A stretch of DNA of 64,000 nt, from the sequence record PZ049338.1, one strand, 5' to 3'. This DNA is from a phage. Both the position numbers and the translations under genes were made by a program. Below the pieces are notes generated by a model that saw only the letters and a program-made list of their open reading frames with translations, ran no database searches and was not told the origin of the DNA. This document shows positions 41,946 to 61,350 of the stretch, piece by piece. The stretch's first letter is position 1; every line of letters begins with the position of its first letter.

Positions 41946-41947
41946 GG

Positions 41948-43477: not shown

Positions 43478-44081
43478 TATTCAACTCCTCAGTGTGACCA
43501 GAGCCAGCATATGCTTGAGTAGCACCCTGCTGACCGTTGTAGTTACCTTTAACAGCGTAAGAGTCGTTACCAACGTCTTCGTGTTCAAAGAATACCATCT
43601 GACCAATGCGCATACCGGGTTTGATAAGGAGTCGGTGATACTTGTTCATATTCTTGAACTCCATAGTAAGCTGTGCGCCATGCCAACCGGCATCTGCCCA
43701 ACCTGCCATCATGTGTTCAAGGAAGCAACGAGCCACTGTAGAACGTAATACAAACTGACTGGAGATAGTATTTGGTAAGTTAAATGTCTCAACAGAGTGA
43801 GCCAAGAAACACTGACCCGGTTCGATAATCAAACCAGTCTCAGGGATAATCTGTTTGATGAACTTAGGAGATTGCTTTGCAGCAATATCAATCGGTTCAG
43901 AATGAACACCCGGAACAGCTTCAGCCATACCAGAAAGGTCTTGGTATTGCCATGCAGGGGCTTCGACCAGAATCTCGTTACCAATACGGATATCAATACT
44001 CGCTGAGTTTACGTTCTCATGCAGAGCGTCAATAACATTTTCATCAATCAGTTGGTGCAATCGTGTAGAAGAGAGTAACAT
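43464..44081 (-). CDS. dcd: dCTP deaminase
   Basis: SIDIRIGNE, RSTVARCFL, KPGMRIGQMVFFE, YNGQQGA align with recalled E. coli Dcd. Confidence 0.75.
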   Translation of the reverse strand: MLLSSTRLHQLIDENVIDALHENVNSASIDIRIGNEILVEAPAWQYQDLSGMAEAVPGVHSEPIDIAAKQSPKFIKQIIPETGLIIEPGQCFLAHSVETFNLPNTISSQFVLRSTVARCFLEHMMAGWADAGWHGAQLTMEFKNMNKYHRLLIKPGMRIGQMVFFEHEDVGNDSYAVKGNYNGQQGATQAYAGSGHTEELNNEET

Positions 44082-44264
44082 TAACTATCCTTAGTCTTCG
44101 TCGTTGTCGTTAAAGCGGAATGGGTCGGAGCATTCAATTACCCCAGCGTCTTCGTCTAAGCGAAAGGTCATTCCTGCAATTTCAAAATCGGAGTCCATCA
44201 TGTGTTATTCCTTAACAAGAGGCCACACTTATTATAGTGACCTCTAGAGAGTATCCTTACACCG

Positions 44265-44762
44265 TTATTTGTAAAAGATTCTGCTATGTGGAGGATTCAA
44301 CCAATCAAATCCAGCCAGATTGCAAAGATGCTCATACAAAGCAACGGTAACATTTACGTCCTGCTCACAGTAAGTGAACATGTCTTCAGTGAACACATCC
44401 CAAGCATTCTCTGTCTTGCCATAATCGCCTTTATAGATACCAAGCTCACGACCCCATGAATCCAGTGAATGACCACCGGGGCGGTCAGGCTGGAGCATAC
44501 GGCTGAGAACTAAGGTATCAAAGGTGTTCATGTGGAATTCAAGACCACTGAGTTTAGCCAGAGTCGGGAGGTCATAATCAATGATGTTATGGCCAACCGT
44601 TAAATCGAAGGACATTAAATCCTTCATATACTTGTCTAAATCTTGTGGTCTATAACCCTGTCGCTCTTTCGGTTGACTAGGGTCAATAATCCAGGCACAG
44701 TGAAATTTGGAGACATCAATATAGAGATTGTTAGTCTCTATATCTGTACAAGCAATCTTCAT
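44265..44762 (-). CDS. DnaQ-like 3'-5' exonuclease (stand-alone polymerase proofreading domain)
   Basis: Exo I DIET, Exo II HNIIDYD, Exo III YCEQD. Confidence 0.7.
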   Translation of the reverse strand: MKIACTDIETNNLYIDVSKFHCAWIIDPSQPKERQGYRPQDLDKYMKDLMSFDLTVGHNIIDYDLPTLAKLSGLEFHMNTFDTLVLSRMLQPDRPGGHSLDSWGRELGIYKGDYGKTENAWDVFTEDMFTYCEQDVNVTVALYEHLCNLAGFDWLNPPHSRIFYK

Positions 44763-44771
44763 TAATACACC

Positions 44772-46568
44772 TTAGAATGGTCGACTATCATCACGACTGA
44801 CTTCATCAGAGTCAGGCTCCTCTCCCGGGATAGAGAAAGGATTCTTAGGGTCATACTCATCAGCAGTACGCTGTCTCAATCGACCTGTAACTGGGTTATA
44901 GGAAGTTGGGACAATACCTGTCTGACCGAAGTTACGGTCTTTCAGGAGACGAATCTGAGACAAGTTACGAGCATCACCATCTGCCTGCTTGTTACGCTCA
45001 AAGCCCAGAATTAACTGGGAGAATCGCATAAGAGCACGCGAACCTGTGAACTGCACTTCCTGAACCTGACCACCTTCCTCGTGCGGAGCACCAGTTTTAG
45101 GTGGGTTCAAGTGACTGAATACGAAACATGTGAACTCCAGTTCGTTACACAGTCCAGCCAGTTCTACAGCAATACGAGCAACTTCGGTGTTAATCTCAGT
45201 CGCTGATAAGTGTGATACCAGTGCGGTGATGTTATCTAAGAAGATGAACTTCACACCATGCTCCACAACCCAGAAACGCATACAGCGTTTGATATCTTCC
45301 CAATCATTCTGACCAAAGTTCCGGTAAAGGAACAGATGGCCATCATACTTCAGAGCTTCACTCTTAAGCAGTTCAGGGTCGAACTCAACATCTGGGCGAT
45401 GGAAAGGTATATTAGCAGATTTACCTGCGATGTTTTTGATTGTGTTACCTACAGTCTCTTCCAACATGAAAGCGCCCACTTTCTCTTTGTGGACGTTAAT
45501 GAGGTGAGCACTAAGTTCGTGAGCAAGCAGTGTTTTACCACCACCCACACCACCACCAATTGCAATCACTTCACCATATCGGAGACCGAAGGTTAACTCT
45601 GTAAGACCTTCCCAAGGGAATGATAAACCCCACTCAGGCTTCTTCAGCGCATCTTCCAGACACTCAGCTACAGTCGTTGAGCCAGCCGGAGATTCTTTTG
45701 CAGCATTGAAGCGTAAGCAGTTATTAAGTTCGAGGTCACGACCGTCCATGAGGAGGTCATTAGCGTCCTTAATTGGAGCACCATCTTTACGGAACCCTTT
45801 AGGGATTCGGGCAATCTTAATGTTCGGATACATCGCTCGAATCTTGTTCACAGCATCATCACCAGCTTCATCGTTATCCATGCAGACAACAACTTCAGCG
45901 AATGATTCTACGAATGCACGGTCACGAGAGAACGCAGCCGCTGCTGATTTCGAGCCATCCGGTAAAGAAACACATGCTGGTTTGTATGTACTCTTAGAGT
46001 TCTCTGTCAATACCTGAAAACCAGACATTGCACTGAGTTCGTCTTCAAATACAAACAACTTACCTGTGTACACATCACCAAGACGTGCTTGGGACATACC
46101 GAAGAAACTACAACCTGATGCTGCACCTACAGCATAAAAACCTTTAGGTTCTAAGGTGCGAACTTTGTAAGCACGGATTGCTCCGTCCTTTTCCTTCGGG
46201 TAAAACTGAGAGATAGGTTCCCGGTTAGTGGATGAAAGACCAATACGAACACCAAAACGTTCGGCAACTTCTTTCTTCACACCACGAATGGTGCAGTTCT
46301 GAATAGGAAGCTCTTGGACTTCCGCTAAACGTTCTTGTACTTCTTCCTCGGTCAGTTCACGGAATTCATGACGAACTCCTTCCCACTTCTCGCGGTTACC
46401 TTCTTCAACCTGTTCGTAAAAACCATCACGACTACAGTAAACCCACTGCTCGCCGGTCTCAACATTTTCCCAATGCTGAAGATGGTTGCCAGTTCGGTCA
46501 TGGCCTGCTGCCGTACAGGTTGGACATGCAGAATCACCAAGGATTCTTTTGTTTCCATAAACTTTCAT
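44772..46568 (-). CDS. primase-helicase (Zn-finger + TOPRIM + DnaB-like helicase)
   Basis: N-terminal CPTC Zn finger, TOPRIM-like CMDNDEAGDD, Walker A GGGVGGGKT. Confidence 0.8.
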   Translation of the reverse strand: MKVYGNKRILGDSACPTCTAAGHDRTGNHLQHWENVETGEQWVYCSRDGFYEQVEEGNREKWEGVRHEFRELTEEEVQERLAEVQELPIQNCTIRGVKKEVAERFGVRIGLSSTNREPISQFYPKEKDGAIRAYKVRTLEPKGFYAVGAASGCSFFGMSQARLGDVYTGKLFVFEDELSAMSGFQVLTENSKSTYKPACVSLPDGSKSAAAAFSRDRAFVESFAEVVVCMDNDEAGDDAVNKIRAMYPNIKIARIPKGFRKDGAPIKDANDLLMDGRDLELNNCLRFNAAKESPAGSTTVAECLEDALKKPEWGLSFPWEGLTELTFGLRYGEVIAIGGGVGGGKTLLAHELSAHLINVHKEKVGAFMLEETVGNTIKNIAGKSANIPFHRPDVEFDPELLKSEALKYDGHLFLYRNFGQNDWEDIKRCMRFWVVEHGVKFIFLDNITALVSHLSATEINTEVARIAVELAGLCNELEFTCFVFSHLNPPKTGAPHEEGGQVQEVQFTGSRALMRFSQLILGFERNKQADGDARNLSQIRLLKDRNFGQTGIVPTSYNPVTGRLRQRTADEYDPKNPFSIPGEEPDSDEVSRDDSRPF

Positions 46569-46635
46569 GACTTAATCCTTTTCCATGTCATTAAGCTTGC
46601 TGCGGGTATTACTTAGTGCCTTAGGTTAGATAACA

Positions 46636-47310
46636 TTACAGAGTGTCATAGTAGTCTGCGCGATTATGCAGACACCAGTCACCCGACTCAACACGGTTAC
46701 TGTCGCCTTGGTCTTCATCAATGTGATAAATCCAAGCCTTTGCGAAGGAACCATCATCCAGTTGGATTTCAACCTGCGTACGGTTATAGAAACCATTCTC
46801 AGGGTCACAGGCACTGTACCCTTCCAGCATGTCGTATGCACCAGTCAGACCTTCCAGAGGTGCTTCAAATACATCAACAACAACCTGCTTGCCAGACTTG
46901 TTAGCCTTAAGGTTCACGGAAGGGAAGTAGGAGCCACCGTAGCGATATAAATCGAACTGGTCTACAGTCACACCCTTACTTACAAATTCACCGCCGCCAC
47001 GAGCGTTTACGTGGAAATTCTGCATGTTGCGACGCAGAGAGCCATAAGTTGCGATGAATACTTTACCGTCTGAAGGAATTACTAAGTTCTTTGACATTAC
47101 TTGTCCTGTTTTAGGTTGTAGATAATATTTAACTTCGACAAATCGCCATGTGTTCTGGAGGTTCTCTGCCATTTCTTTTGCTTCTGGGTAAGTTAAGCCA
47201 CAGCCAAGCTGATAACCTTCCTCACCCTTACTCATGCGACCAATCAGTAAATAACGAACTTCATGGTCACCTGTTAGTGGTTCTTTAATTGAGAGCTTCA
47301 TCTTATACAC
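46636..47310 (-). CDS. gamma-glutamyl cyclotransferase-like (AIG2/GGCT fold) domain protein
   Basis: FIATYGSLRR ... DMLEGY ... YNRTQV fits GGCT pattern. Confidence 0.55.
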   Translation of the reverse strand: MYKMKLSIKEPLTGDHEVRYLLIGRMSKGEEGYQLGCGLTYPEAKEMAENLQNTWRFVEVKYYLQPKTGQVMSKNLVIPSDGKVFIATYGSLRRNMQNFHVNARGGGEFVSKGVTVDQFDLYRYGGSYFPSVNLKANKSGKQVVVDVFEAPLEGLTGAYDMLEGYSACDPENGFYNRTQVEIQLDDGSFAKAWIYHIDEDQGDSNRVESGDWCLHNRADYYDTL

Positions 47311-47366
47311 TTCTCACCCCTTGTTATGTTCGACAAAGGCCACTCCGAAGAATGACCTTTAGCAAA

Positions 47367-47903
47367 TTACCAGAGCTTATTAAGAGCCAGATTATTAGTA
47401 ATCACTGGTGTGCTTTCGTAATCATCCAGAGATGTTGGGCCCATACTAATAGCACCATATCCAGTTACGTGAACACTTACACGGGTCATCTGGTCGAAGA
47501 ATTCCTTCATCTGAGACGGTTCTGTGATGTTCTTTCCAGCAACACCAAGAACCTGTACACGCTGACCAGAGGAGCGCAGACCCTTCTTAGTGACCACTGC
47601 CGTAACTGTCTGACCAACAACAGTGGGCTTAGTTAATACCTCAAAGAACACACCGGATATGTCAGTTACACCCTGTTCCATATGCATTGTTGCATAGTTA
47701 ACTTTGTAGGTGTTTGGAACTTCATATACACGGGTAGATTTGAAAGTAGTACCAATGTAGTTATCTGCATTGAAGTCACGGGAACGGCTACGACGTTCAG
47801 CCTCAATGAGAAGTGATTGGTAATAACCTTCCAGTATTTCACCAACACCTTTACGAGTTGTACTTAACCCGATTACTCGGGAATATCCAATAATTAAGAA
47901 CAT
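47367..47903 (-). CDS. hypothetical protein (178 aa)
   Basis: ORF track; 23-bp repeated element immediately upstream. Confidence 0.5.
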   Translation of the reverse strand: MFLIIGYSRVIGLSTTRKGVGEILEGYYQSLLIEAERRSRSRDFNADNYIGTTFKSTRVYEVPNTYKVNYATMHMEQGVTDISGVFFEVLTKPTVVGQTVTAVVTKKGLRSSGQRVQVLGVAGKNITEPSQMKEFFDQMTRVSVHVTGYGAISMGPTSLDDYESTPVITNNLALNKLW

Positions 47904-47912
47904 TAAGAATCT

Positions 47913-47935
47913 CTCTTTATATATGTGGATTAACT
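47913..47935 (+). promoter_or_regulatory. 23-bp repeated element CTCTTTATATATGTGGATTAACT (copy B)
   Basis: identical to 25156-25178; 10 nt from start codon of 47367-47903. Confidence 0.45.
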
Positions 47936-47936
47936 A

Positions 47937-48476
47937 TTACAATTTCTGAGTCACTGTTTCGTAGGTGGTTACTACCTTTTTCTTCTTCTCAGTGATACCG
48001 GAAAGAAGTGCCCAATAGAAACGACCGCCATGACGTTCAGCCATCTCAGCAGCAATCTGCTCTGCCTTCTCAGCAGTTTCCACCACTACGCGAGGTGGAC
48101 GAGATGATTCAGGACACCACAAGATATACTTACCGAGGTTCTTATCTTTAGGAGAAGCCTTGGCTTCCGCTTTAGCTGTCTCTTGGGTAGCAGTAGAACT
48201 TTCACCCAAATCGTTGAGACGCCATGTATACAAGGCAGTACCTGATAGTAGGGTCAGTCGGCTACGAATGATGAAGCTGGTTGGTCGCTGATTCAACTGT
48301 ATAGAATACAATTGACGACCATGCTTGTCAATTAAGCACACTTCCCAACGACCCGGATATAACAAGTAGATTCCAATAGTGTACATGAACCTATTACCAA
48401 TACGAGCCTCTGCACGGTCATGGTCATGGAAGTTGAAGTTAACAGAAGAGGGGATGTGGATTAACTTCTTAGACAT
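47937..48476 (-). CDS. hypothetical protein (179 aa)
   Basis: ORF track. Confidence 0.5.
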   Translation of the reverse strand: MSKKLIHIPSSVNFNFHDHDRAEARIGNRFMYTIGIYLLYPGRWEVCLIDKHGRQLYSIQLNQRPTSFIIRSRLTLLSGTALYTWRLNDLGESSTATQETAKAEAKASPKDKNLGKYILWCPESSRPPRVVVETAEKAEQIAAEMAERHGGRFYWALLSGITEKKKKVVTTYETVTQKL

Positions 48477-48682
48477 TATTTACCAACCTTAGTTACGCTT
48501 TCAACAAGAGCATAAGGGAATGCGGCTTGCAATTCCATGTGACCTGCCTTACCACCAATAGTCTTGTTCTCAATGAAGATGTAGAACTTGTAGTGGTGAG
48601 GGTCAATCTGAACCATTGTTGCAGGAATGATTTTATCCGCAGAGTCAAGAAGTTTTACACGATATTTAATAATCTCAGCCAT
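48476..48682 (-). CDS. small hypothetical protein (68 aa)
   Basis: ORF track. Confidence 0.45.
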   Translation of the reverse strand: MAEIIKYRVKLLDSADKIIPATMVQIDPHHYKFYIFIENKTIGGKAGHMELQAAFPYALVESVTKVGK

Positions 48683-48686
48683 TTCT

Positions 48687-48956
48687 TTAATCCCAGTTAG
48701 GTTGGAGGTCTTTCATTGCGAAGTCACGTACTTCACCACGTTCACGGCAAACAGCTTTTACGAACCACTGTTCACCTTCATGGTACTCAGAGATACCATA
48801 CCAAATATTGATTGGTACAATAGTGCGCTCTGCTGTTTCACCGCGCCAGTTAGTGTAGGTCACACGGTGTGGTACTTGTAGAACTAATAACTTTGGTCGT
48901 GCTGTTTCAGAAGGGACTTTCGTCGTCATAATCTTCACCGTAGACAATAGAATCAA
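48687..48956 (-). CDS. hypothetical protein (89 aa)
   Basis: ORF track. Confidence 0.45.
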   Translation of the reverse strand: MILLSTVKIMTTKVPSETARPKLLVLQVPHRVTYTNWRGETAERTIVPINIWYGISEYHEGEQWFVKAVCRERGEVRDFAMKDLQPNWD

Positions 48957-49182
48957 TGAACGCTTGATGTTTTGCCAACTTCTTTTTCATGAGTTTGTTG
49001 TGGACTTGAAGAATATTAGAGACCTCTTTGGTGACAGTCACATGAGGTACAGCAACACCTTCAGCGAATTTTAGTCGCTTAAAGGGAGCGACAAGGTAAA
49101 TGAACTTAGCAACTTCAGTGTTGTTTCGTAAATTTACCTCTTCCCCATTAGTTAACTTATAATACACCCAGAGATTCCACAA
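48907..49182 (-). CDS. hypothetical protein (91 aa)
   Basis: ORF track; overlaps both neighbours. Confidence 0.4.
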   Translation of the reverse strand: MWNLWVYYKLTNGEEVNLRNNTEVAKFIYLVAPFKRLKFAEGVAVPHVTVTKEVSNILQVHNKLMKKKLAKHQAFIDSIVYGEDYDDESPF

Positions 49183-50344
49183 TAATTACATCGTTAGTTG
49201 TAACCATGATTTCCCAGCCAGCCAGTTCGAACATACCACCGGTGAATACACCTACGTTACGAACATCATCGTTACGCATCTGAACGATGTAGATGCCGTT
49301 TTCAACCAAGCGAATTGGTTCCTGACGCGTCACAGTAGCTGTTACCTCTGCTTCGATAGCGAAGTTTTCATCTTCAGCAGCTTCTACTGCATTGTCTGTG
49401 GCAGTCTGGTTCTGAGTTACAATGTCAACCAGTTCCTGAGCGGCAGCGTTACCACGAACGATTGCTGCTTGCAATTCACTGTTGGTGTTCACTTCATTTT
49501 GCAATTCAGCCAGAGCTTCATTAATATCTTCGACAGCATAAACTTCCTGACCATTGAAGATTGCCATTACGTTGGCTGCAAAACGTTCTGCGTTAGAACC
49601 GGTCATACCCGGAGCAGTGTTAACTTCCAGTACCCACGCTTCATCACGACGAGTAATGAGGTCAACTGCACCGTAGTCCAGACCCAGAGCAGCGATTGCT
49701 TTCAGGGCTTCACGCTTAGCTTCTTCATTAGGCTCAGCCTGCTGAGTTGCATAAATCCAACCAGTGTGGTGATTTCGGATAATATCACTGTATTCTGGCA
49801 GGTCAGCGTAACCGTTCACACGCTTCTTCTGCTGAATGTTAGTGATAACACCATTCATCACATGGATGCGGTATTCACGACGCTGAGCATTAACACCCTT
49901 GGTGTAAAGCTGTGCATTAGCCAGAGTACCTTGAACACCATCACCGAAAAGCTCTTCGTTGTTGGTTGCAATCACAATGCCTTCACCAGAGTGTCCAGAA
50001 AGGCGTGTACGGCAATAAACCAGATGACCTGCATCAAGCCATGACTGAGCTTCTTCACGGTCTGTAGTGTACTCTACAGTCTTCACATCATTGCGACGGA
50101 ATACTTCGAAAGAGATACGTTTGTTGGTCGCATTACCAACGTTGTACGGGTTGTTCAGGATGCGGGCATTGCCGATGATTTCGGCAGATAGGGAGGATGA
50201 ACCGTAGTTGACAATTAAGTCACCACTGCGACCACGGAAGCGAGAGCCATCAGTCAGGAGACGAAGTGCTCCCGGCATTAAAGGCATGAGTTCGTTCAGG
50301 GTGTCAGAAGGGCCATTTGAATATACACGTAAGCGAGGTGCCAT
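49157..50344 (-). CDS. ATP-grasp ligase
   Basis: C-terminal ATP-grasp signature WVLEVNTAPGMTGS. Confidence 0.7.
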   Translation of the reverse strand: MAPRLRVYSNGPSDTLNELMPLMPGALRLLTDGSRFRGRSGDLIVNYGSSSLSAEIIGNARILNNPYNVGNATNKRISFEVFRRNDVKTVEYTTDREEAQSWLDAGHLVYCRTRLSGHSGEGIVIATNNEELFGDGVQGTLANAQLYTKGVNAQRREYRIHVMNGVITNIQQKKRVNGYADLPEYSDIIRNHHTGWIYATQQAEPNEEAKREALKAIAALGLDYGAVDLITRRDEAWVLEVNTAPGMTGSNAERFAANVMAIFNGQEVYAVEDINEALAELQNEVNTNSELQAAIVRGNAAAQELVDIVTQNQTATDNAVEAAEDENFAIEAEVTATVTRQEPIRLVENGIYIVQMRNDDVRNVGVFTGGMFELAGWEIMVTTNDVIIVESLGVL

Positions 50345-50389
50345 TGTTGTTACCTTTTCAGTGGGTTGTTGGAAATCAATATTATAAGA

Positions 50390-50409
50390 GGCTCCGAAGA
50401 ACCTCTGAA
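50390..50409 (-). other. conserved intergenic hairpin (RNA AGAGGUUC uucg GAGCCUCU)
   Basis: UNCG tetraloop hairpin; family member. Confidence 0.5.
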
Positions 50410-50417
50410 ATATGGAC

Positions 50418-50657
50418 TTAAGCGGCCATCAATGCGATGAGTTTGCGGTTTTCATTCCTGAGAGCACCAATCTCATCATCAATAAGACTGTAGTGGTACG
50501 ATAACATTTGGAGGGACATTTCACCTACATCTGAGGCAGTCATCTGCTCGACGTAAGTTGCCTTCTCCTCAATCAGCCGTCCAATGTCTTTGTTGTTTTG
50601 TGCTATTAAATCCATCGCCTCTTTACGAGCAGCTCTTGCGACTTCATTATCAGCCAT
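50418..50657 (-). CDS. hypothetical protein (79 aa)
   Basis: ORF track. Confidence 0.45.
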   Translation of the reverse strand: MADNEVARAARKEAMDLIAQNNKDIGRLIEEKATYVEQMTASDVGEMSLQMLSYHYSLIDDEIGALRNENRKLIALMAA

Positions 50658-50881
50658 TAGACTTCAATCCCCTTCAGACGGCAGTAGTCAGCCAGCATCA
50701 TGTGGATTGATACCGGATAAGGGATAGCCACTTTAACACCTTTTTGCTCTTCGTAAAGACCAATCTGGTAGGCACGAACTGCACGGAGCATATCAGAACC
50801 TAAATCAGTCATTGGAACTTTACGAATCACAACCGGGTTCTCCAGACGAAGAACCTTAACTTCTTTCATTGAATCATCCAT
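50657..50881 (-). CDS. hypothetical protein (74 aa)
   Basis: ORF track. Confidence 0.45.
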   Translation of the reverse strand: MDDSMKEVKVLRLENPVVIRKVPMTDLGSDMLRAVRAYQIGLYEEQKGVKVAIPYPVSIHMMLADYCRLKGIEV

Positions 50882-50896
50882 ATTCTCATTTACCTA

Positions 50897-52888
50897 TCAT
50901 TTCTTGTTTGAAACTTTACCCGGAACCTTTCCAGTTTCCAGAACTTTTGAACAGCGTTCACAGCAAGGTGTACTGCCGATAAACTCTGTAACCGCTGCTT
51001 TGTTGAAAGGAATCTTGTAGTTGCAGAAAGAGCAAGTGTTCATCTCTTCCCACTGAACCAGAGTCACTTTCATACCGTTTTGCAGAGACTTGCGATAAGT
51101 CAGGATTGGTCGGACATTACTGCCGCTATTCTTCCGCGCTTCCACAATCTCATTCTGGAGAGCTTTCAGTTCACTCTTCAGATGCTTGTTACTGTGGCAC
51201 TGTAAGCAGAGGCTCTCAACCTCTGATTCAGCATCAACAGGTAACTCTTCTTGACAGTTGATACATTCAAAACGAAGCGAGTCGTCAGAGGACGTCTTTA
51301 CACCATCAACTAACCCCGCATCTACACAACCACCACAATAGGCGTAATCATGATAGATTGTTGAGTCTGCCACGAAATCGAACGGTATTGGAGAGCCACA
51401 GTTTCCGCAGCAATTGTAAGACCCGTTTCCCTCCCATTCCTTTTTTGTGACTACAGTTCCGTCACGAGTTGTGTCCATTGTGTAACCATCATCTTCCTCT
51501 TCTTCGAGTTCAGAGAAGTCACCAATTGAAACACCGGGAGTGGTAAGAGTTAGAGCCGGCGGGGTACGATTGTTCTTGACAGTGTTGAACTCTGTCAGAA
51601 TATCATTGATATCTTCATCTAACGAACCTTCATCATCCAAATCCAATGTTGAAGGAATTAGGGTCTCACCTTGTGGTGAAACATCAGATACGATGATAGT
51701 CAGGATGTAGTTTGATTCGTAACAAGAGATAATCTTGCCTTCGAACATACCACCATCGGTGTACATTTCCAGAGGAACGCCATGACCCTGAACCTCAATG
51801 TAAGCGCCTTCACCTATCCAACCGGTAAGTTGACCTTTCTGAGGATTCTTAGGATACGGTTCGTACTGATACGCTTCGAACACCATACGTTCATGCATCT
51901 TGTATGGAACCTGATGCACTTCCAGAAGTTCGTTAAGCTGCTTGTACTTGTTGCTCACTGAATCAGGGACACCAATGTGAGAAGGCTCAACGTTGCTTCG
52001 ATTAACGCTGCTGCGAGAAGGATTGTTATAAACACGCGACGAGCCGTAGGTGTCATAACGGTCTGAAAAGTAGTCATCATACGACTGGTAGGAATTGCCC
52101 CAGTAGCGCGATTGGTATACCGTTTGAAACACAGGCAGCTCGTGCTTGATTTCCTCCTTAAATACCAGACCATCAGTTGCATCAAATACATACTGAGTTC
52201 CGACTTCGAGTTCAAACTCTTTGTCGAAAGTTGGGTTCCACTTCTTACGGGACATAATCCACTTGAGCATGTCCTTCTCAGAAGCACCATACCAGTCACC
52301 ACCAGTGGTCTTCATCATGTAGAATGGACGCTCGTCGTTACGCAGGAAGTTCAGCGTATTCAGCTTAGCGTCATGCCACACCAGAACGAATGCACCATGC
52401 AATTTCTTGATGGTTTCTTCGATACCGATAGTTGCGATTGAATGGCAAACGTTCTCACTGTCCACTTCAAACTGCTCATGGTCAGGGAGTAGGCTTTGGT
52501 TTACTAATGAGCCGTTGTGAACCAGAGTGATATGTCCACATTGGAATGGGTGGGCGTTCTTGTCAACCACAGCTCCAGCAGTTGCATAGCGGTTGTGACC
52601 AACAATGAATCGAGGGTACGACACTGATGTTGTTTTAACACCGAGGTTGTTAACATTCTCAGAACGATGCTGAGCAATATCTTTCCACAGAGTTGAACGA
52701 AGGAAAATGTCACTTGGTACAGCTTTCTTAGCCGTCTTCAAGAAGGCATCCTGCTGATACGGCTTGTAATAAGCCATCACCCCAGTTGAATGGTCGCCTC
52801 GGAACACATCGGCATACAACATCTGCTCGAAACGCTCGAGGTTAGTTGAAGATAAGGCGGTTCCACCTACAAATACAATTCCACACAT
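50897..52888 (-). CDS. class II glutamine amidotransferase (Ntn, Cys2 nucleophile) with long Cys-rich Zn-ribbon C-terminal extension
   Basis: N-terminus MCGIVF as in PurF/GlmS-type amidotransferases; C-terminal clusters CCGNCGS, CINCQ...CLQCH, CSFCN...CCERC. Confidence 0.7.
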   Translation of the reverse strand: MCGIVFVGGTALSSTNLERFEQMLYADVFRGDHSTGVMAYYKPYQQDAFLKTAKKAVPSDIFLRSTLWKDIAQHRSENVNNLGVKTTSVSYPRFIVGHNRYATAGAVVDKNAHPFQCGHITLVHNGSLVNQSLLPDHEQFEVDSENVCHSIATIGIEETIKKLHGAFVLVWHDAKLNTLNFLRNDERPFYMMKTTGGDWYGASEKDMLKWIMSRKKWNPTFDKEFELEVGTQYVFDATDGLVFKEEIKHELPVFQTVYQSRYWGNSYQSYDDYFSDRYDTYGSSRVYNNPSRSSVNRSNVEPSHIGVPDSVSNKYKQLNELLEVHQVPYKMHERMVFEAYQYEPYPKNPQKGQLTGWIGEGAYIEVQGHGVPLEMYTDGGMFEGKIISCYESNYILTIIVSDVSPQGETLIPSTLDLDDEGSLDEDINDILTEFNTVKNNRTPPALTLTTPGVSIGDFSELEEEEDDGYTMDTTRDGTVVTKKEWEGNGSYNCCGNCGSPIPFDFVADSTIYHDYAYCGGCVDAGLVDGVKTSSDDSLRFECINCQEELPVDAESEVESLCLQCHSNKHLKSELKALQNEIVEARKNSGSNVRPILTYRKSLQNGMKVTLVQWEEMNTCSFCNYKIPFNKAAVTEFIGSTPCCERCSKVLETGKVPGKVSNKK

Positions 52889-52944
52889 GGATAATAATCC
52901 TCTAAGTTCATTTAAATGGGGCCGAAGCCCCTGTTTGTTAATAC

Positions 52945-54612
52945 TTAAGCGATATGGTCGTTATCTGGCTCATAATCATCGTCTTCTTCAATATCGTCAT
53001 CTTCAGATGATTCATACATATCGTAATCACCACCACGACGAGGTACAGGGACTTCATTACGAGCTTCACGGTTCTCTTCATTACGCATGTCTACGAACTG
53101 ACGGTAGAAGTTTCCGAACAGACGAGAACGTTGAGCCTGATTGGTTTCGTAGATGAACCAATCAATGTCAAAAGTGATGCCAAGCATATCGCACTTCCAA
53201 CGCAACTCAGCTAACCAACGGAATGTCAGCATTGGAGGGCGGGTGTTCTCCAACAACCAAGTGCCATTACTGCGGGTTTCCAGATTGATTCGCAGGTGTT
53301 CCCAATAGCGAGGTTCCAGATAGAAATTTGTACGATGACTTGAATCATCCTCGGCAGATTTCACAGTGTGAACGTAAGCACTGAGTTTGCGTAGGGTTGA
53401 CATTGAAATCACTTCATATGCCAGTTTGTAGCCAATGTCCAAATCTTCTTCGAAGTTCTGAACAACCTTCGGCAGACCCTTACGAATTGCGCTGTGAATC
53501 GGCAATGTTGATAGGTACTCAATGAAGTCACTATCAGTACCTTCGAAGTTCACCGCCAGTTCCTTCAGTGATAAGAAGCGGTTAGTCAGGCGAATAATGC
53601 TGCCCTTACGCCACTTGGCCTCACTAATACGGAATTCAACTGAACCAAAACTACTCATCGGTAACAAGTTCAGTGAAGTGTACTTATCCCATTCACGGGT
53701 TACACGATTAGTGAAATCGTGGTTGTCCAGATGCCAGTTGTTAGCCAGAGTAGCTAACTGCTCCTGTGCAAAACCAAGAGCAACACAGAAGTTGTTCTTG
53801 TAACGATGCCAACCAGAGCAGCGGAACAGTACACGCTCATAAACAATATACGCAAGAATCATGCGCTTCAGTTGAGCGACACTCAAATCACGTACATCAA
53901 TGTGAACGTGGGTGGAGCAACGCCAAGATGTATCTGGCGTATGACGGAACAGGAAGGAGTCGATTTCCAGGGATGCTGCATAGAGGTCACGACCACCCCA
54001 AGGGGATGAACATACAAACTCCATACCTGAGTTACGAAGTGAACCATCTAGCTTTGCTTCCCAATACTGGAAAGTTGGCTCATCACTGAGGTGAATCTCT
54101 TCGAGTTCAATCTCAATACCTGCCAGATGTGTTCCAACAATTAAAGGATGACCCTGAATAGTTGGGTAGGTTGCACGTTGCCCGTAAATCTGTGCAATAT
54201 TCATGTTATTCGATACCTCTACGTTTCCGGAGATGAAGCCGTTGCGGCTTGGATTATTAACGCTTCCGTGTCTCTGGTTACCAATCTCTTCCCGTAGATT
54301 GTCTCGTGTGTATGCGTGTTGACCTCTTTGAAGTCCAGTGAAGAGGCTAGGTCTCTGGCTTTCGCGCTCCATTCTCCGCTGTCTTGCTTGTTCATCAGCA
54401 CGGTTATTCAACCACGTCATGAAGGCACTATCTTCTGACTGAGCTACCCCCTGATTCACTATTGGCACAGGTGGCTCTTCGAAAGCTTGAGATACAACAC
54501 TTTCTGTTACATTCGGAGGTTGATAATTAGCCCATCTGTCCATGTGTACAGTGGCTTCAACGTCGAAGAAACCCCCAGTTAATCCTGGGGAGTTGTTACT
54601 GTTATTTGGCAC
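52945..54612 (-). CDS. glutamine-synthetase-fold carboxylate-amine ligase (GCS2/YbdK-like amidoligase), 555 aa
   Basis: GIEIELEE, THVHIDV, FGSVEFRIS match recalled YbdK motifs GIELEM, HVHVG, FGTVEVRVMD. Confidence 0.55.
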   Translation of the reverse strand: MPNNSNNSPGLTGGFFDVEATVHMDRWANYQPPNVTESVVSQAFEEPPVPIVNQGVAQSEDSAFMTWLNNRADEQARQRRMERESQRPSLFTGLQRGQHAYTRDNLREEIGNQRHGSVNNPSRNGFISGNVEVSNNMNIAQIYGQRATYPTIQGHPLIVGTHLAGIEIELEEIHLSDEPTFQYWEAKLDGSLRNSGMEFVCSSPWGGRDLYAASLEIDSFLFRHTPDTSWRCSTHVHIDVRDLSVAQLKRMILAYIVYERVLFRCSGWHRYKNNFCVALGFAQEQLATLANNWHLDNHDFTNRVTREWDKYTSLNLLPMSSFGSVEFRISEAKWRKGSIIRLTNRFLSLKELAVNFEGTDSDFIEYLSTLPIHSAIRKGLPKVVQNFEEDLDIGYKLAYEVISMSTLRKLSAYVHTVKSAEDDSSHRTNFYLEPRYWEHLRINLETRSNGTWLLENTRPPMLTFRWLAELRWKCDMLGITFDIDWFIYETNQAQRSRLFGNFYRQFVDMRNEENREARNEVPVPRRGGDYDMYESSEDDDIEEDDDYEPDNDHIA

Positions 54613-55196
54613 TGTGGTAATTCCTTGGCTAAAAAGCGAACCAAGTGACGTGCTTCAGCAGCCACTTCGATAGCATCGTCAGAGAGGAACTTACCGATGC
54701 TCACATCCTTGTAGCGTAAGTCTGAATTGACACGCAGGAATACCCCTCCAATAACTTCAGGATACTCATTTTTGTTGAAGAACGCTTTGATGTTCTCCCA
54801 ACTAAAGCGGAAGTTGTTACAGATACGGCTGTGGGTTAACCCCTTCTTAGTTGAGCGATTTGCACGATAACTGACCCATACGAAGTTGTTTCCAATCTTC
54901 ACGAATGCAGGCTCAGGTAATTCTAGAACCAGATTCGGGTCAGTATGAGAGATGGATACGTTACGGTAATTACCATCGTCACCCATCGTCGTTCCGTGGA
55001 ATACCAGAGCATCTTCAGCTTCCTGAGAATACGCTGCACGGTCACGCTGTGCTCGCGTCATTTCACTGAAATCCAGAACAGTATTGTCATGGGTCACTGC
55101 GTCAATCTGGAAGGGCTGGACTTTACCAGCCTCATCCTTCAGACCAACGTAAGTCCCAGAGTAATACATTGAGAAATCGTCGGTAAGCATTAGCAA
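54579..55196 (-). CDS. hypothetical protein (205 aa) within amidoligase cluster
   Basis: ORF track; overlaps both neighbours. Confidence 0.5.
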   Translation of the reverse strand: MLMLTDDFSMYYSGTYVGLKDEAGKVQPFQIDAVTHDNTVLDFSEMTRAQRDRAAYSQEAEDALVFHGTTMGDDGNYRNVSISHTDPNLVLELPEPAFVKIGNNFVWVSYRANRSTKKGLTHSRICNNFRFSWENIKAFFNKNEYPEVIGGVFLRVNSDLRYKDVSIGKFLSDDAIEVAAEARHLVRFLAKELPQCQITVTTPQD

Positions 55197-55993
55197 ATCT
55201 CCATCACACGTACATATTCTTTAGCCAGAGCTTTGTCATTGTTGTTAATGACACGCTGTACTTCTTCCGGGTTGATGATTGATGCGATGCCACGGAAATC
55301 ACCACGCATCATAGCGAATGCTTTCTGAGCTTGTTCCCAAGCCCATTTGCGATTCTCTTTGTTCATAATCCAGAAGTTGGACATTACACGATATTCGATA
55401 CCGTATGGCTTGAAGCGGCAAGCACCAGCTTTACCATACAGTTCTTTTCGACGGTCATCACCGTCCAGCAGGAGGGCGGGCAGTCCCAGGAAGTAGTCAC
55501 ACATCACGCCGAGAACTTTCTGACTTTCGGACGTCACAGTAGTAACTGTATCGTAGCCAACGTGGATGTGACCACCTGCTGTACGAAGACCGGGGTCAGC
55601 AGCTTGAGGTTTAGGATTACGCATACCAGTCAGTGCGTTGTAATCAGGCTCACAGCCGAATACGAATGCATCTTTGTGGAAGCGTTCCAGTTCAGCAGCG
55701 GTGTAGATATGAGAACTGACATTCATTGCCAGTTCATGACCTACATAACCAACTGCTTCTTCACAGTATTTGATACCATCAACAATGTTCTTGTCGAAGG
55801 ATTCAAAATCACTATGCGGGTTGGTGTCGAACTCAACCAGCACGTTATCTTCCTGAATACGAACGTCTTCCGTGACTGCTTTCTTGTTGTACTTGTCCGC
55901 TCCAAGCAGACCTGAAACAGAACTGATAGCCCCTGTGCTCGAATCACGAGTGAACAACTCAGGGTCGGTAGCCAACAAAATAACATTAGACAT
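55190..55993 (-). CDS. glutamine-synthetase-fold carboxylate-amine ligase (GCS2/YbdK-like amidoligase), 267 aa
   Basis: GGHIHVGYD and YGIEYRVMS match recalled YbdK HVHVG and VEVRVMD. Confidence 0.6.
   Translation of the reverse strand: MSNVILLATDPELFTRDSSTGAISSVSGLLGADKYNKKAVTEDVRIQEDNVLVEFDTNPHSDFESFDKNIVDGIKYCEEAVGYVGHELAMNVSSHIYTAAELERFHKDAFVFGCEPDYNALTGMRNPKPQAADPGLRTAGGHIHVGYDTVTTVTSESQKVLGVMCDYFLGLPALLLDGDDRRKELYGKAGACRFKPYGIEYRVMSNFWIMNKENRKWAWEQAQKAFAMMRGDFRGIASIINPEEVQRVINNNDKALAKEYVRVMEIC
55533..55544 (-). other. strand-specific 12-mer, exact copy 4 (intragenic)
   Basis: exact 12-mer. Confidence 0.6.
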
Positions 55994-56013
55994 TTCGTTT
56001 TCCTTAAAGAGGG

Positions 56014-57150
56014 TTAATATTTAGGGTTGTAACCGTTTGCTTCTGCGAAAGCAGCCAAAGCAGCAATTGCAGCTTCAGCATCTCTCTTGTTCATGTCACT
56101 ATGAACCGGACTGTATGGGTGGTCTTGCGAACCAGATGTTGGGCCTGCAATGTAGAAACCAACAACACTGTTCCATTCTTGCACGCCTGGGATTACTTCA
56201 TCACCAGCGATACTGAAAGCATCAACCATCTTACGGTAGCGAATTGCGTTAGAATGGTCAGTATCAATATCACCAAATGTATCACGCTCACGCGCTACAT
56301 CACGGGAATTGGTTCTCCAGTTCCAGTAAATACCCTTGTAGCGGTCATCAAACACCACTTCAAGACTTTTAAAGTGCGAGTCACGATAGTAACCACGCTG
56401 ATTCTTCCACGTATCCTGCACGTAGTCGAACTTGTCAACACGCTGATGGAGGAGGTTAATCAGGCCTTGAGAACCAATGGTGTCCGGAGAGAACCAGTTA
56501 TACTCACCAGTACGAATTGGTTGATAATACTTATCGACCTTGCCCGAGAATGCACTCTTGTTAACAGTGATGTTAAAGAAGTGCGCGATGATGGCAGAAA
56601 AACGTCGCGTGTATCCACAATGCAACGCCTCTTTATAAGCGGTGACGAATCCACCATAGTTACAGAGGTTGCGGAACAATGACATTGCCAACATAACTTC
56701 GTCAGCTTTGCGCTTGCCAATGTGGAAACGAATTACGCCAAGCTTTGGATGAACCTTCACCCAAGACTTATACATTGGCAACTCTTCCAGCAATAACTTC
56801 ATTTCACTGAAATAGTTTGGGCCACAAGTTTTAAGCATGTACTTGACGCGTGATTGTTGATTTTCGATTTGGTAGAATTCCTCAGGATATTCACCATCGC
56901 CATGAGTATCCATTGGGGCAGACCACATGTGACTAATGCCATACTCAACTTCAAAATCGATGTGCTTCTGTTGGTGACCATCACGCTCACGGATATTACT
57001 GGCTTCTACCGGAGTGAAATGTTGTGTCGGGCTGTCAGGGTTAATTAGGCGCTGCTCATGCCAACGATTAACACCCATTTTACCGAAACAAATACCTTGG
57101 GCACGGAAGGATTTTCCGTCCTTAAACATTACGCGATATTGAACTGACAT
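56014..57150 (-). CDS. hypothetical protein (378 aa) within amidoligase cluster
   Basis: ORF track. Confidence 0.5.
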   Translation of the reverse strand: MSVQYRVMFKDGKSFRAQGICFGKMGVNRWHEQRLINPDSPTQHFTPVEASNIRERDGHQQKHIDFEVEYGISHMWSAPMDTHGDGEYPEEFYQIENQQSRVKYMLKTCGPNYFSEMKLLLEELPMYKSWVKVHPKLGVIRFHIGKRKADEVMLAMSLFRNLCNYGGFVTAYKEALHCGYTRRFSAIIAHFFNITVNKSAFSGKVDKYYQPIRTGEYNWFSPDTIGSQGLINLLHQRVDKFDYVQDTWKNQRGYYRDSHFKSLEVVFDDRYKGIYWNWRTNSRDVARERDTFGDIDTDHSNAIRYRKMVDAFSIAGDEVIPGVQEWNSVVGFYIAGPTSGSQDHPYSPVHSDMNKRDAEAAIAALAAFAEANGYNPKY

Positions 57151-58107
57151 TTAGTTACCTTTTACATGTTCGTTAATGAGAGCAATGCAATTGAGGAGTT
57201 CTTCTTCATCAAGCTGATGGTAGCTTGAGGAATTATTACGAATCAGGCTCTCCAGTGTCTGACTGGTTGGTGAATCTGATGGAGCACCTTGTACATCCAT
57301 GAGAATATCCTTTAGGTCTGCTTCATGACCTATACGCTCGAAGATAGGTGCTGGTTCACCTTCCCCATCGTAGGTGGTCTCCATCGTACCATCACGGCCA
57401 TAGCCGCTTGCAGTGGAACCCCACTCACCTTGCCATGCGTGTCCCAGACGACCTTCCATAATCATAATAATGTCATGGATTTCAGTATCATCTTGGAACA
57501 GTTCAGAGTCATCACTGCATTGATACCAGTAACGAACCTCACCTTTCCAATTCGCATTGCCATTAAACATCATGGAGTAGATGAAGGCTTCTTTAGGTGA
57601 GTAACCTTTGTTACGAAGGAGTTCGTACAGTCGGTTACATGCTGTGTATTCAATCAAGTTACGGAGCATCATTGCACCGACGATTGTTACCTGCATTTGC
57701 TGACCGCATAGAGGCCATGTAATACGAACGTTGGCATTACCCCAATTGCCACTATATTCAGATACCTTATCAAGGTTCTCTACAGTCACATTGCTGTAGA
57801 ATTGTGGGAATGCTTCCATGATTGCAACTAAATCAGCTTCAATCATCCCCTTAACCGCGTCAGAATTACAACGAGGCACTGGTAACCAAATTAAGAAGTG
57901 AATGTTATCTGATTCGAAGTCGGGGTTTGCGCAGTAAACACTTTCTGCATCCTCCCAATCAAAATCTTCATCATCTTCATTTACAACATGCCCTAATCCA
58001 TTAACGTAATGCTCGTTCCATTGATTGATGTAGGCCATGAAGCCAAAGCATGGGCGAGAGTGACGGAGTTCCTTCCCTTGTCCGTTAACAGTGATAGCTT
58101 GTACCAT
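57151..58107 (-). CDS. hypothetical protein (318 aa), first gene of the cluster
   Basis: ORF track; hairpin and RBS upstream. Confidence 0.5.
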   Translation of the reverse strand: MVQAITVNGQGKELRHSRPCFGFMAYINQWNEHYVNGLGHVVNEDDEDFDWEDAESVYCANPDFESDNIHFLIWLPVPRCNSDAVKGMIEADLVAIMEAFPQFYSNVTVENLDKVSEYSGNWGNANVRITWPLCGQQMQVTIVGAMMLRNLIEYTACNRLYELLRNKGYSPKEAFIYSMMFNGNANWKGEVRYWYQCSDDSELFQDDTEIHDIIMIMEGRLGHAWQGEWGSTASGYGRDGTMETTYDGEGEPAPIFERIGHEADLKDILMDVQGAPSDSPTSQTLESLIRNNSSSYHQLDEEELLNCIALINEHVKGN

Positions 58108-58169: not shown

Positions 58170-58541
58170 TTATTCAGTTACTTGCAGCTTGGAAGATTCC
58201 CAAAGCTGGTCTACCAGATGAACGCGCTTAACTGCGTCGTCAATGAATTGGTTGAGTTGAATACGCTGGAACTTCTCAGCCTGACGAGAAAGCAGGAGCT
58301 CTTGGTACTGAGCTTTCAGGAAGTTGCGAGTTACCACCAGAGTTTTCTGACGATGCCCAGCTTTGCCCAGACGGATTTCAGCATTAATAACACTGAGTTG
58401 GTCGCTGATTGATTTGCGTAGGACTTTCGCCGCAGACACTTCCAGATTAAAACGCTTAAGGTCTTTACGAGCGTTAGTCAGTGCTGAGCCTTCAGATTTC
58501 AGGATTGCTTCGATAGTTGCGATATTACCAATCTTATTCAT
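58170..58541 (-). CDS. hypothetical protein (123 aa)
   Basis: ORF track. Confidence 0.45.
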   Translation of the reverse strand: MNKIGNIATIEAILKSEGSALTNARKDLKRFNLEVSAAKVLRKSISDQLSVINAEIRLGKAGHRQKTLVVTRNFLKAQYQELLLSRQAEKFQRIQLNQFIDDAVKRVHLVDQLWESSKLQVTE

Positions 58542-58986
58542 TGCTTTTACCCTTAGGTTTGTGGAGTTTTAGGAAATAATGGTTACGATATTTAAACGCT
58601 TTCTTACCTTTAGCCCAATAAGGTCTATCAGTACCACTGTAGAAGTGGGTGTAGCGATACTTGGGTTTATAACCGGGCTTCATCACCTTGCTGGCTAAGA
58701 ACATTGCCTGTGCATAAGCTGCCTTCTCTTGACTCGTTTGTGGGTGAGTCTTGAAGACCTTCTTTTGCATAGTCAGCAAACCGTTGAAGTCTTTGTGTTT
58801 AAGGCGTTTTGTCCAATCGAACTGACTCTTTTGCAGAACAACTTTACAAGCAGTATCTGGGTAACGTTCATCAGTGACACGAGTCGCTATAACATCAGCA
58901 ACTAATTCCATGCCCTTGTCACCCTCGCCTCCGGCCTCCGTATATATTGTTAATGTAAGTGCTAATAAGCACGCTGCAAAGCTCAT
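58534..58986 (-). CDS. SleB-like cell-wall hydrolase with signal peptide
   Basis: N-terminal hydrophobic leader; TEAGGEG...VIATRV...YPDT...VVLQKSQF fits recalled SleB/CwlJ hydrolase pattern. Confidence 0.55.
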   Translation of the reverse strand: MSFAACLLALTLTIYTEAGGEGDKGMELVADVIATRVTDERYPDTACKVVLQKSQFDWTKRLKHKDFNGLLTMQKKVFKTHPQTSQEKAAYAQAMFLASKVMKPGYKPKYRYTHFYSGTDRPYWAKGKKAFKYRNHYFLKLHKPKGKSNE

Positions 58987-60597: not shown

Positions 60598-61350
60598 TTA
60601 CGACTGGATAATGCTTTCTTGAGCCAGTTCATCTTTCACCTGTTTAAGTGTAAATGTATTGTCGTCACAATCAATACCAATAGGGCCGATAATACGGTAT
60701 TTAGTATTGCGAGTTTCAACAAAGAAAGTACCAACCTTCTCAGAGATATTTACTACACGGGAGGTACTGATTGACAACCCATCACGGAAAGGGTGATTTC
60801 CGTGAGTGTGGGTATCGCTCCAGATTCGACCAGTCATGTACCAGTTGCTATCATTGGACTTGTAAATGATAGCAGATGACAGTTTGGCGTCGAATTGTGG
60901 AATTGGTAATGGGACATAACCTTCACGCAGTATCGGATTTTGTTCATCCGGCATTTGAGTGAAAGGCTTCATCTCAAACATTATTTCAAAGTCACGAGCC
61001 CATTGGCGAATCCGTTTTGGATTTAAACCATTGACACGTTTGAAGTAACCCTGCTGATGTTCAGCACTGATTAATTCATATGACAAATCCAAATCCGTAC
61101 GATGAACAGTGGAACACATCATCATAAGGTATTCATGACGACCACACCACACGTAAAGAAGATGTCCAATCTCCTCTTTAGTGAAATCTGTCGCTTCCGC
61201 CAGACGGTCAGTGATACCAAGCGCCAGTGGTTCAGGGAAACGCTTGTAGAAAAGGATTGGGAACTTCTCAATAAGTTCCGGCATACGACGCTTATAGAAA
61301 TCGTACTGAACAGGGGTAACAGGGCGAAGTTTTACGCGTTGAGTTGTCAT
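60598..61350 (-). CDS. ProQ/FinO-domain-like RNA-binding protein with C-terminal extension
   Basis: LIEKFPILFYKRFPEPLALGI...LLYVWCGRHEYL...DLD resembles recalled ProQ/FinO N-terminal pattern. Confidence 0.5.
   Translation of the reverse strand: MTTQRVKLRPVTPVQYDFYKRRMPELIEKFPILFYKRFPEPLALGITDRLAEATDFTKEEIGHLLYVWCGRHEYLMMMCSTVHRTDLDLSYELISAEHQQGYFKRVNGLNPKRIRQWARDFEIMFEMKPFTQMPDEQNPILREGYVPLPIPQFDAKLSSAIIYKSNDSNWYMTGRIWSDTHTHGNHPFRDGLSISTSRVVNISEKVGTFFVETRNTKYRIIGPIGIDCDDNTFTLKQVKDELAQESIIQS

Follow-up and report, generated by a model that had tools for sequence, protein, structure and literature searches.

The window analysed here is the whole of a 64,000-nucleotide stretch of phage DNA (sequence record PZ049338.1), and within it we examined a cassette of open reading frames (ORFs) on the minus strand, running from 58107 down to 46636, that encodes three predicted ligases, a class II glutamine amidotransferase (GAT-II) and a gamma-glutamyl-cleaving cyclotransferase. 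Judged by its gene content, the cassette is a member of the already described phiEco32/RIO-1-type system, since every testable defining feature of that system is found in it, and it is a rediscovery rather than a new system. The 11.5-kb block is 97.7% (97-98%) identical to Salmonella phage PKM.Hi.22.6 in GenBank, with Salmonella phage 7-11 and Cronobacter phage A24 (both Grimontviridae) as more distant relatives.

Gene layout of the cassette

The cassette belongs to an early/middle arm of minus-strand genes that extends from approximately 64 kb to 25 kb. Its genes are transcribed in the order A, B, C, D, E, F, G, H, I, five small ORFs and O (Table 1), followed by genes for a primase/helicase, a polymerase exonuclease subunit and a dCTP deaminase. 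A tightly packed, co-oriented run had been described in the original prediction, which was made from this sequence alone, and all ORFs were recovered at their coordinates, with genes that abut or overlap. ORFs A and B are abutting, B and C are separated by 20 nucleotides, and C overlaps D by 7 and D overlaps E by 34 nucleotides; gaps of 56 and 15 nucleotides follow E and F, respectively, G overlaps H by a single nucleotide, and the ATP-grasp gene (ORF I) overlaps the next ORF by 26 nucleotides. The largest gap in the cassette (73 nucleotides) precedes ORF I and holds a promoter-like site, at a position equivalent to that of an annotated promoter in phage 7-11. In none of the 18 ORFs checked (43464-58107, all cassette proteins included) does any 19-residue stretch reach the hydrophobicity needed for a membrane helix, as would be expected of soluble, cytoplasmic proteins; signal peptides were not specifically predicted.

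The 56-nucleotide gap between the amidoligase (E) and amidotransferase (F) genes contains a perfect GC-rich hairpin, GGGGCCGAAGCCCC, at 52918-52931. The coding strand has no T-run after this hairpin, so that it may act in RNA processing or stability and not as a terminator.

Table 1. Features of the cassette in order of transcription (positions in the window; aa, amino acids)
Feature	Coordinates	Strand	Length and assignment	Match or remark
ORF A	57151..58107	-	318 aa, A/B family; very acidic, net charge -31	phrog_24882 E=1e-55
ORF B	56014..57150	-	378 aa, A/B family	nearly invariant C21, R160, R256
ORF C	55190..55993	-	267 aa, phiEco32-type COOH-NH2 ligase type 2	PF14395 E=2e-7; phrog_3815 E=9e-104
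ORF D	54579..55196	-	205 aa, near-core, between the two ligases	predicted small SH3/Tudor-like beta-barrels
ORF E	52945..54612	-	555 aa, Amidoligase_2 core at about residues 138-440	PF12224 E=3.7e-4; phrog_7469 E=8e-82
ORF F	50897..52888	-	663 aa, class II (N-terminal nucleophile) amidotransferase at about 1-240 plus variable extension of about 420 aa	GATase_6 E=1.5e-15; N-terminus MCGIV
ORF G	50657..50881	-	74 aa, DUF7195, accessory	PF23825 E=1e-33
ORF H	50418..50657	-	79 aa, lineage-specific, no family	3 loci only; no Pfam match
Promoter match	50381..50409	-	sigma-70-like, TTCAGA-17-TATAAT	consensus match only; just upstream of ORF I
ORF I	49157..50344	-	395 aa, RimK-like ATP-grasp at about 1-265 plus C-terminal extension of about 130 aa	RimK PF08443 E=3e-6
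Five small ORFs	47367..49182	-	91, 89, 68, 179 and 178 aa, lineage-specific, between ATP-grasp and cyclotransferase genes	outside the conserved core
89-aa ORF	48687-48956	-	stand-alone WYL-domain protein	WYL E=8e-6
ORF O	46636..47310	-	224 aa, GGACT/AIG2-like gamma-glutamyl(amine) cyclotransferase at about 85-215; accessory	PF06094 E=8e-16

Predicted enzymes and accessory proteins

The original prediction had recognised enzymes of the ATP-grasp, ligase, GAT-II and gamma-glutamylcyclotransferase (GGCT) families, and a search of the ORFs with profile hidden Markov models placed them in the ATP-grasp, amidoligase, GAT-II and GGCT families, with catalytic residues present. ORF C scores above the Pfam cut-off for PF14395, a family named for phiEco32 ("phage phiEco32-like COOH.NH2 ligase type 2"), is 74% identical to the type 2 ligase of phage 7-11 and is a predicted ATP-dependent carboxylate-amine ligase. 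Residues D10, E12, K34, D49, E54, C114, R137, H142, H144, R182, R193, E200 and R202 are invariant in its 80 homologues. ORF E reaches 20.9 bits against PF12224, just under the Pfam cut-off of 22, and the same family is matched by 37/37 of its aligned homologues (best E=4e-12); E167, E169, S191, E198, H235, H237, Y311, E326 and R328 are conserved throughout about 80 homologues, its N-terminal ~137 residues are not conserved, and its C-terminal tail is acidic. That tail (52945-53040) reads ...EDDDIEEDDDYEPDNDHIA in the window, ...DEEDDEDTANF in 7-11 and ...EDDEDDSSPDFW in A24, was seen in this clade only, and is reminiscent of the acidic C-termini of T7 gp2.5 and gp4; the adjoining primase/helicase ends in ...RDDSRPF.

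The two ligases had been described as paralogues. The E-x-E, HxH and E(F/Y)R motifs are indeed common to both, but a profile-profile comparison of C with E gave a probability of only 4%, so that their paralogy rests on motifs and Pfam classification and is accompanied by no significant sequence similarity. A weak match to GCS2 (E=0.058) was obtained for 2/38 family members. Pfam's authors place both ligases in the glutamine synthetase/glutamate-cysteine ligase (GS/GCS) superfamily, whose members activate glutamyl gamma-carboxylates.

ORF F has GlmS, PurF and AsnB as its nearest models, with EgtC behind them. At least 70 of its 83 homologues start with MCG and hence with the Cys nucleophile; R30-G31 is also conserved, and the glutamine-binding residues R100, N125-G126 and D143 are kept at 96-100% in about 80 homologues. 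Past residue ~270 there is no Pfam or NCBIfam domain and no recognisable synthase domain, and past residue 214 no column is conserved at 90% or more. The earlier description of a class II amidotransferase fused to about 430 residues of Cys-rich, Zn-ribbon-like sequence stands as to the enzyme and its long extension, but not as to the composition of the latter: of its ~420 residues only the last ~160 are Cys-rich, with three Zn-ribbon-like CxxC...CxxC pairs at residues 494-646.

ORF I, likewise foreseen as an ATP-grasp enzyme, has RimK (5zct/4iwx) as its best PDB match and keeps the residues expected of the fold, namely Lys for ATP (K75, K173) and E157, D228, E240 and N242 for Mg. All of these, together with G122 and R159, are 100% conserved in about 80 homologues. 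The NCBIfam models rimK_fam (1e-9) and MptN (3e-9) match far under their family cut-offs (rimK_fam, 38 bits with a cut-off of 143; PRK10446, 21 bits with a cut-off of 331), and because of these low scores ORF I is, on sequence grounds, not an orthologue of RimK (the S6 glutamate ligase), MptN or CofF.

ORF O, which had been recognised as GGCT/AIG2-like, matches PF06094 at 59 bits (cut-off 22.8) behind an extra N-terminal domain of ~80 residues. The residues of its Y89-G90-x-L92 motif are 95-97% conserved and the catalytic Glu, E163, 100%. In about 40 other loci a Peptidase_C26 gene (gamma-glutamyl hydrolase-type class I amidotransferase fold) occupies the slot upstream of C. Both GGACT and Peptidase_C26 enzymes cleave gamma-glutamyl amides. 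An enlarged cassette is found in Sinorhizobium phage phiM6 (locus L006, 7795-14988), in which the same ligases are surrounded by genes for a Peptidase_C26, for two amidotransferases of class II and for two GGCT enzymes.

Among the remaining proteins, A and B are paralogues (hhalign probability between their clusters, 96.6%) of a family with no Pfam or NCBIfam match. The same family lies directly upstream of C in a marine clade and in Escherichia phages most similar to phiEco32 (hhalign 97%, 96.6% and 89%), whereas the positional analogues in LUZ24-like phages gave 10% or less. An exhaustive profile search of 1.84 billion proteins returned 233 representatives, which are stand-alone proteins of ~200-430 residues except for one 137-residue fragment among those listed, and by this search the family is phage-only. 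Its AlphaFold model is confident and, as a prediction, has no PDB counterpart. ORF D, with its modelled barrels, is probably a non-catalytic binding or adaptor subunit.

DUF7195 (ORF G) occurs in enterobacterial and Pseudomonas lineages only, always between the amidotransferase and ATP-grasp genes, and has variable C-termini with no conserved C-terminal residue. Its use as a Pup- or LysW-like tag or carrier is ruled out by its patchy spread (19/73 loci) and by the absence of a conserved C-terminal acidic residue. Each of the five small ORFs occurs in only 2-5 of 86 loci, and the A24 counterpart of the 89-residue ORF is likewise annotated as WYL.

Conservation and distribution in phages

The neighbourhood was compared in 86 loci, each with a homologue of C. 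Six of them come from annotated phages and 80 from IMG/VR (the top 80 among at least 564 matches); the ORF calling was crude. Co-occurrence was counted with iterated profiles of every window protein in the 73 loci that extend at least 8 kb downstream of C. Amidoligase_2 (E) and GAT-II (F) were each present in all 73 loci, ATP-grasp (I) in 72, D in 60 and O in 37, and G was found in 19; divergent copies of D stand at the same position in several further loci. The order C-D-E-F-(G)-I-(O) is nearly invariant, with median gaps of -24 to +3 nucleotides, and places the cassette just upstream of the primase/helicase gene and the other replication genes. Phages 7-11, A24, phiIBB-PAA2 and UFV-P2 share this order, and at least six unrelated groups of podophages keep the arrangement of the five-gene core C, D, E, F and I. 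The cassette is a conserved module whose clustering goes far beyond chance; scattered homologues, the outcome that would have spoken against the original prediction, were not what we observed (73/73, 73/73 and 72/73 in fixed order). Further conserved neighbours were none but replication proteins (a single-stranded DNA-binding-like protein, a primase zinc ribbon and DnaB) and proteins without assignment.

Two variations on this arrangement were observed. In a second architecture (L004, L061, L064, L072 and L079, a crAss-like phage included) the cassette starts with the ATP-grasp gene, lacks D and encodes a larger amidoligase (486-591 residues). In Cronobacter phage A24 (locus L002, 4837-5805) a gene for RNA ligase 2, absent from the window, lies between the GGCT and ATP-grasp genes.

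The type 2 ligase (C) was found in 315 of 50,697 phage records and in at least 564 viral contigs. Its carriers comprise Grimontviridae (7-11-like), Escherichia phages most similar to phiEco32, Bruynoghevirus (LUZ24-like) and a crAss-like Steigviridae phage, together with Sinorhizobium phage phiM6, Vibrio phages and many marine metagenomic contigs. A search of cellular genomes (one genome per species, 100,044 species) gave 10 matches only, mostly on contigs of 1-12 kb or in metagenome-assembled genomes, with uninformative gene contexts. The type 2 ligase is restricted to phages and essentially absent from cellular genomes. Two scaffolds of Herbiconiux daphne CPCC 203386 (866 and 1119 bp; L087 and L089) carry fragments 55-61% identical to the ligase of the window, most likely as phage contamination of an actinobacterial assembly.

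This distribution bears on the proposal that such genes are generic auxiliary metabolic genes that raise the nitrogen or amino-acid metabolism of the host (glutamine, glutamate, glutathione). It was made for a Planctomycetes-associated phage with an amidoligase, an amidotransferase, a "glutathione synthase" and a GGCT, in a study that tested no enzyme (PMC10945688). However, the cassette genes are not copies of host metabolic genes, because the type 2 ligase and A/B are essentially phage-only, and the fixed order of five genes and the specialised accessory proteins point to one dedicated product. We consider this explanation highly improbable.

The constant proximity of replication genes raises the question of DNA or nucleotide hypermodification, for example by an amino acid or polyamine placed on a base. 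The cassette always adjoins primase/helicase and polymerase genes, a dCTP deaminase gene lies nearby, and amidoligase and amidotransferase Pfam domains have been seen alongside thymidine-hypermodification genes in some viral contigs (PMC8989533). Yet a nanopore comparison of native and amplified DNA gave no modification motif for the carrier Rembedalsseter (H58) (bioRxiv 10.1101/2024.10.22.619576), and 11/16 restriction enzymes cut the DNA of U17, a LUZ24-like carrier (PMC11945000). Unlike thymidine hypermodification clusters of the 5-HMUDK and aGPT-Pplase type, the window encodes ThyX (ordinary dTMP) and not a ThyA-type hydroxymethylase; neither this enzyme nor a DNA kinase or a DNA glycosylase-fold transferase had a Pfam match in the 40 window ORFs scanned, the rest being unscanned. 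With ThyX in place, no hydroxymethylase or kinase in those 40 ORFs and two carriers that lack a modification signal, we judge DNA hypermodification to be very unlikely.

Outside the cassette, the early region upstream encodes a 250-residue protein with a ProQ/FinO RNA-chaperone domain (60598-61350, minus strand; PF04352 E=4e-9). An endolysin-like gene of the Hydrolase_2 family (SleB-type cell-wall hydrolase; 58534-58986, minus strand) lies two genes upstream of the cassette, and an endolysin gene is likewise found a few genes upstream in 7-11 and A24. Downstream, a nucleotide-metabolism set (40033-44081, minus strand) comprises a dCTP deaminase-like protein, PhoH, ThyX and a ferritin-like protein.

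Proposed mechanism, target and known systems

On balance, we favour the interpretation that the block acts as a single functional unit, a pathway restricted to phages, located in the cytoplasm and expressed early, that would make and trim glutamate-type amide bonds; this judgement covers the mechanism of the unit and not a peptidoglycan target. Every recognisable enzyme has nearest characterised relatives that act on glutamate or glutamine amide bonds, and we infer the steps below from the family memberships, the linkage and the conservation of catalytic residues, which are intact in all five enzymes. Each of the three ligases (C, E and I) would use ATP to turn a carboxylate into an acyl-phosphate and couple this to an amine, giving up to three different amide bonds in succession. 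ORF I would most likely add L-glutamate to a terminal carboxylate, like RimK, MptN and CofF. For the GCS/GS-like C and E, the most likely activity is on a glutamyl gamma-carboxylate or the formation of a comparable side-chain amide. The amidotransferase (F) may deliver ammonia from glutamine to one of the ligases (amidation) or hydrolyse a gamma-glutamyl amide, because the residues that bind free glutamine or a gamma-glutamyl group are all kept. The GGCT (O), and Peptidase_C26 in other lineages, would remove or recycle gamma-glutamyl groups, with D and A/B as putative accessory subunits; the nearly invariant Cys of A/B suggests that this protein may be a thiol enzyme. A multi-step pathway that builds and possibly trims an adduct was at the centre of the original prediction, and the conservation of order, co-occurrence and catalytic residues agrees with such a unit. 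Its list of acceptors (metabolite, protein or cell wall) fared less well: the amide pathway is retained, but no specific product or target is supported, and the computed evidence decides none of them.

Later reports (PMC5498523, PMC11945000, PMC10580990) trace the prediction of the cassette to Iyer et al. 2009 (Mol Biosyst) and Hardies et al. 2013 (J Virol), and in doing so confirm that comparative-genomic predictions of such neighbourhoods in phages, which the original prediction had mentioned, exist. In the same reports it is named a "peptidoglycan modification cassette" and supposed to block superinfection. The carriers listed are phiEco32, 7-11, LUZ24, PaP3, tf, PA11, CW02 and RIO-1 (PMC5498523), and in Pseudoalteromonas phage HP1 the homologous cassette is transcribed immediately after infection (PMC7082346). 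As published, the stem peptide of a cytoplasmic peptidoglycan precursor is the leading candidate for the acceptor, so that the envelope would be changed during infection; we hold this target only tentatively.

Several observations weigh against this pathway and its proposed target. No biochemical or genetic test of any cassette member was found in the literature searched. The cassette encodes no peptidoglycan-specific feature, be it a Mur-ligase, a lipid II enzyme or an export signal (signal peptides were not specifically predicted), and in most lineages it stands beside replication genes and not lysis genes. Neither ligase C nor E has a PDB sequence match, as single sequences or as profiles, and hhalign of both against E. 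coli YbdK gave non-significant probabilities of 2-5%, with only the signature motifs aligned (GGHIHVG with GQHVHVG, FGSVEFR with FGTVEVR); the YbdK-type GS fold originally assigned to both therefore comes down to motif matches. The partner of the amidotransferase is a guess, because ORF F has no recognisable synthase domain, and the roles of A/B and D are left unassigned because their predicted folds match nothing.

The same enzymes could instead serve a free small molecule, such as a glutathione-like gamma-glutamyl peptide, a gamma-glutamylated polyamine or a glutamyl-tailed cofactor (folate, pterin). The gamma-glutamyl group would then be a temporary handle, taken off again as happens in Puu/Pau, butirosin and ergothioneine synthesis or breakdown. 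The enzyme set has parallels in known pathways: a GCS/GS-like ligase with an ATP-grasp enzyme makes glutathione, a GS-like ligase with Peptidase_C26 serves Puu/Pau, ATP-grasp with the GGCT-like BtrG serves butirosin, and GCS with the GAT-II enzyme EgtC serves ergothioneine. Moreover, the cofactor-glutamylating MptN and CofF are among the nearest ATP-grasp models, Peptidase_C26 is present in about 40 loci, the proteins are soluble by the hydrophobicity check, and the phage encodes the folate-dependent ThyX. However, the hosts make glutathione, polyamines and folylpolyglutamates themselves, no transporter, thiol-handling or pterin enzyme is linked to the cassette, the extra domains of the amidotransferase (Zn ribbons), the ATP-grasp enzyme and the SH3-like D look more suited to binding macromolecules. 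We regard a small-molecule product as rather unlikely.

Binding-type modules (the SH3/Tudor-like D, the WYL protein and the Zn ribbons) would fit a protein target, with glutamylation or a short peptide tag placed on a C-terminus or Lys and removed by the amidotransferase, C26 or GGCT, in a takeover that resembles pupylation or the action of RimK. RimK, the closest solved relative of ORF I, glutamylates ribosomal protein S6, the GS-like PafA tags proteins, and GGACT acts on gamma-Glu-epsilon-Lys. Early expression, as seen in HP1 (PMC7082346), would also suit such a takeover. Against this, no conserved tag or substrate gene was found (DUF7195, the only conserved ORF of small size, is present in 19/73 loci and has no conserved C-terminal Glu/Gln), three ligases and three gamma-glutamyl-cleaving enzymes exceed the needs of known tagging systems, and no proteomic report of such adducts was found in the literature; we consider protein modification unlikely.

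A broader proposal is a phage-specific, glutamate-containing, amide-linked product made by no cellular pathway, whether as a free small molecule or attached to a macromolecule of the host, with A/B as a novel type of thiol enzyme or carrier and the double-barrel D as a substrate adaptor, acting in host takeover or counter-defence. Taken jointly, with A/B and D as previously unseen folds and a role other than superinfection exclusion through peptidoglycan, this combination seems rather improbable to us.

Hundreds of lytic podophages devote about 10% of their genome to the cassette. Among them are candidates for phage therapy against Pseudomonas, E. coli, Salmonella, Cronobacter and Klebsiella, as well as abundant marine phages and crAss-like gut phages. 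Once the product is identified, at least seven gene families would gain a function, including two without structural precedent, and either a new phage envelope remodelling or a new phage-made metabolite or protein modification would come to light. The system was predicted in 2009 and is directly testable, as its Salmonella and E. coli carriers are genetically tractable.

Comparison with characterised systems places the cassette enzymes close to, and apart from, several of them. MurT/GatD, AsnB1/LtsA and the D-Asp ligase Aslfm act on cytoplasmic stem-peptide precursors, either as a ligase with a glutamine amidotransferase or as an ATP-grasp ligase, and theirs is the chemistry assumed by the published peptidoglycan hypothesis; in contrast, the cassette has no protein of the Mur-ligase fold, and the relationship is no closer than superfamily level. 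To our knowledge, the hosts of the cassette are Gram-negative and such peptidoglycan modifications are not normally made there. Handle removal is known from PuuA/PuuD, PauA/PauD, butirosin BtrJ/BtrG and ergothioneine EgtA/EgtC, which likewise pair a GS/GCS-like or ATP-grasp ligase with a GAT-type hydrolase or a GGCT-type cyclotransferase. The cassette differs from them in its families, which are Amidoligase_2 and COOH-NH2_lig and not true glutamine synthetases or glutamate-cysteine ligases, and in lacking the oxidising or tailoring enzymes that act there between addition and removal. RimK, MptN and CofF supply the best Pfam, NCBIfam and PDB matches of ORF I, which keeps their ATP- and Mg-binding residues but falls far under their cut-offs and bears an additional C-terminal domain of ~130 residues. 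ORF F resembles GlmS, PurF, AsnB and EgtC in its N-terminal Cys, R-G motif and glutamine-binding Arg, Asn-Gly and Asp; unlike GlmS, PurF and AsnB, it carries in place of a recognisable synthase domain the ~420-residue extension with three CxxC pairs, and its predicted partner is a separately encoded ligase.

The closest likeness is to the phiEco32/RIO-1-type cassette, with which the window shares the families (PF14395, PF12224, GAT-II, ATP-grasp and AIG2/GGACT), their order and their position upstream of the primase/helicase gene. The lineage of the window differs in carrying the two A/B paralogues upstream where others carry Peptidase_C26, in the greater length and extra domains of its amidotransferase, ATP-grasp enzyme, amidoligase and GGCT, and in the five small ORFs before the GGCT gene, none of which amounts to an essential difference. 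Taken together, our results add to the published picture the Peptidase_C26 alternative upstream, a quantified division into core and accessory genes, the phage restriction of the type 2 ligase, evidence against DNA modification, and the recognition that the 318- and 378-residue ORFs are paralogues of a phage-only family and the 205-residue ORF a near-core barrel protein.

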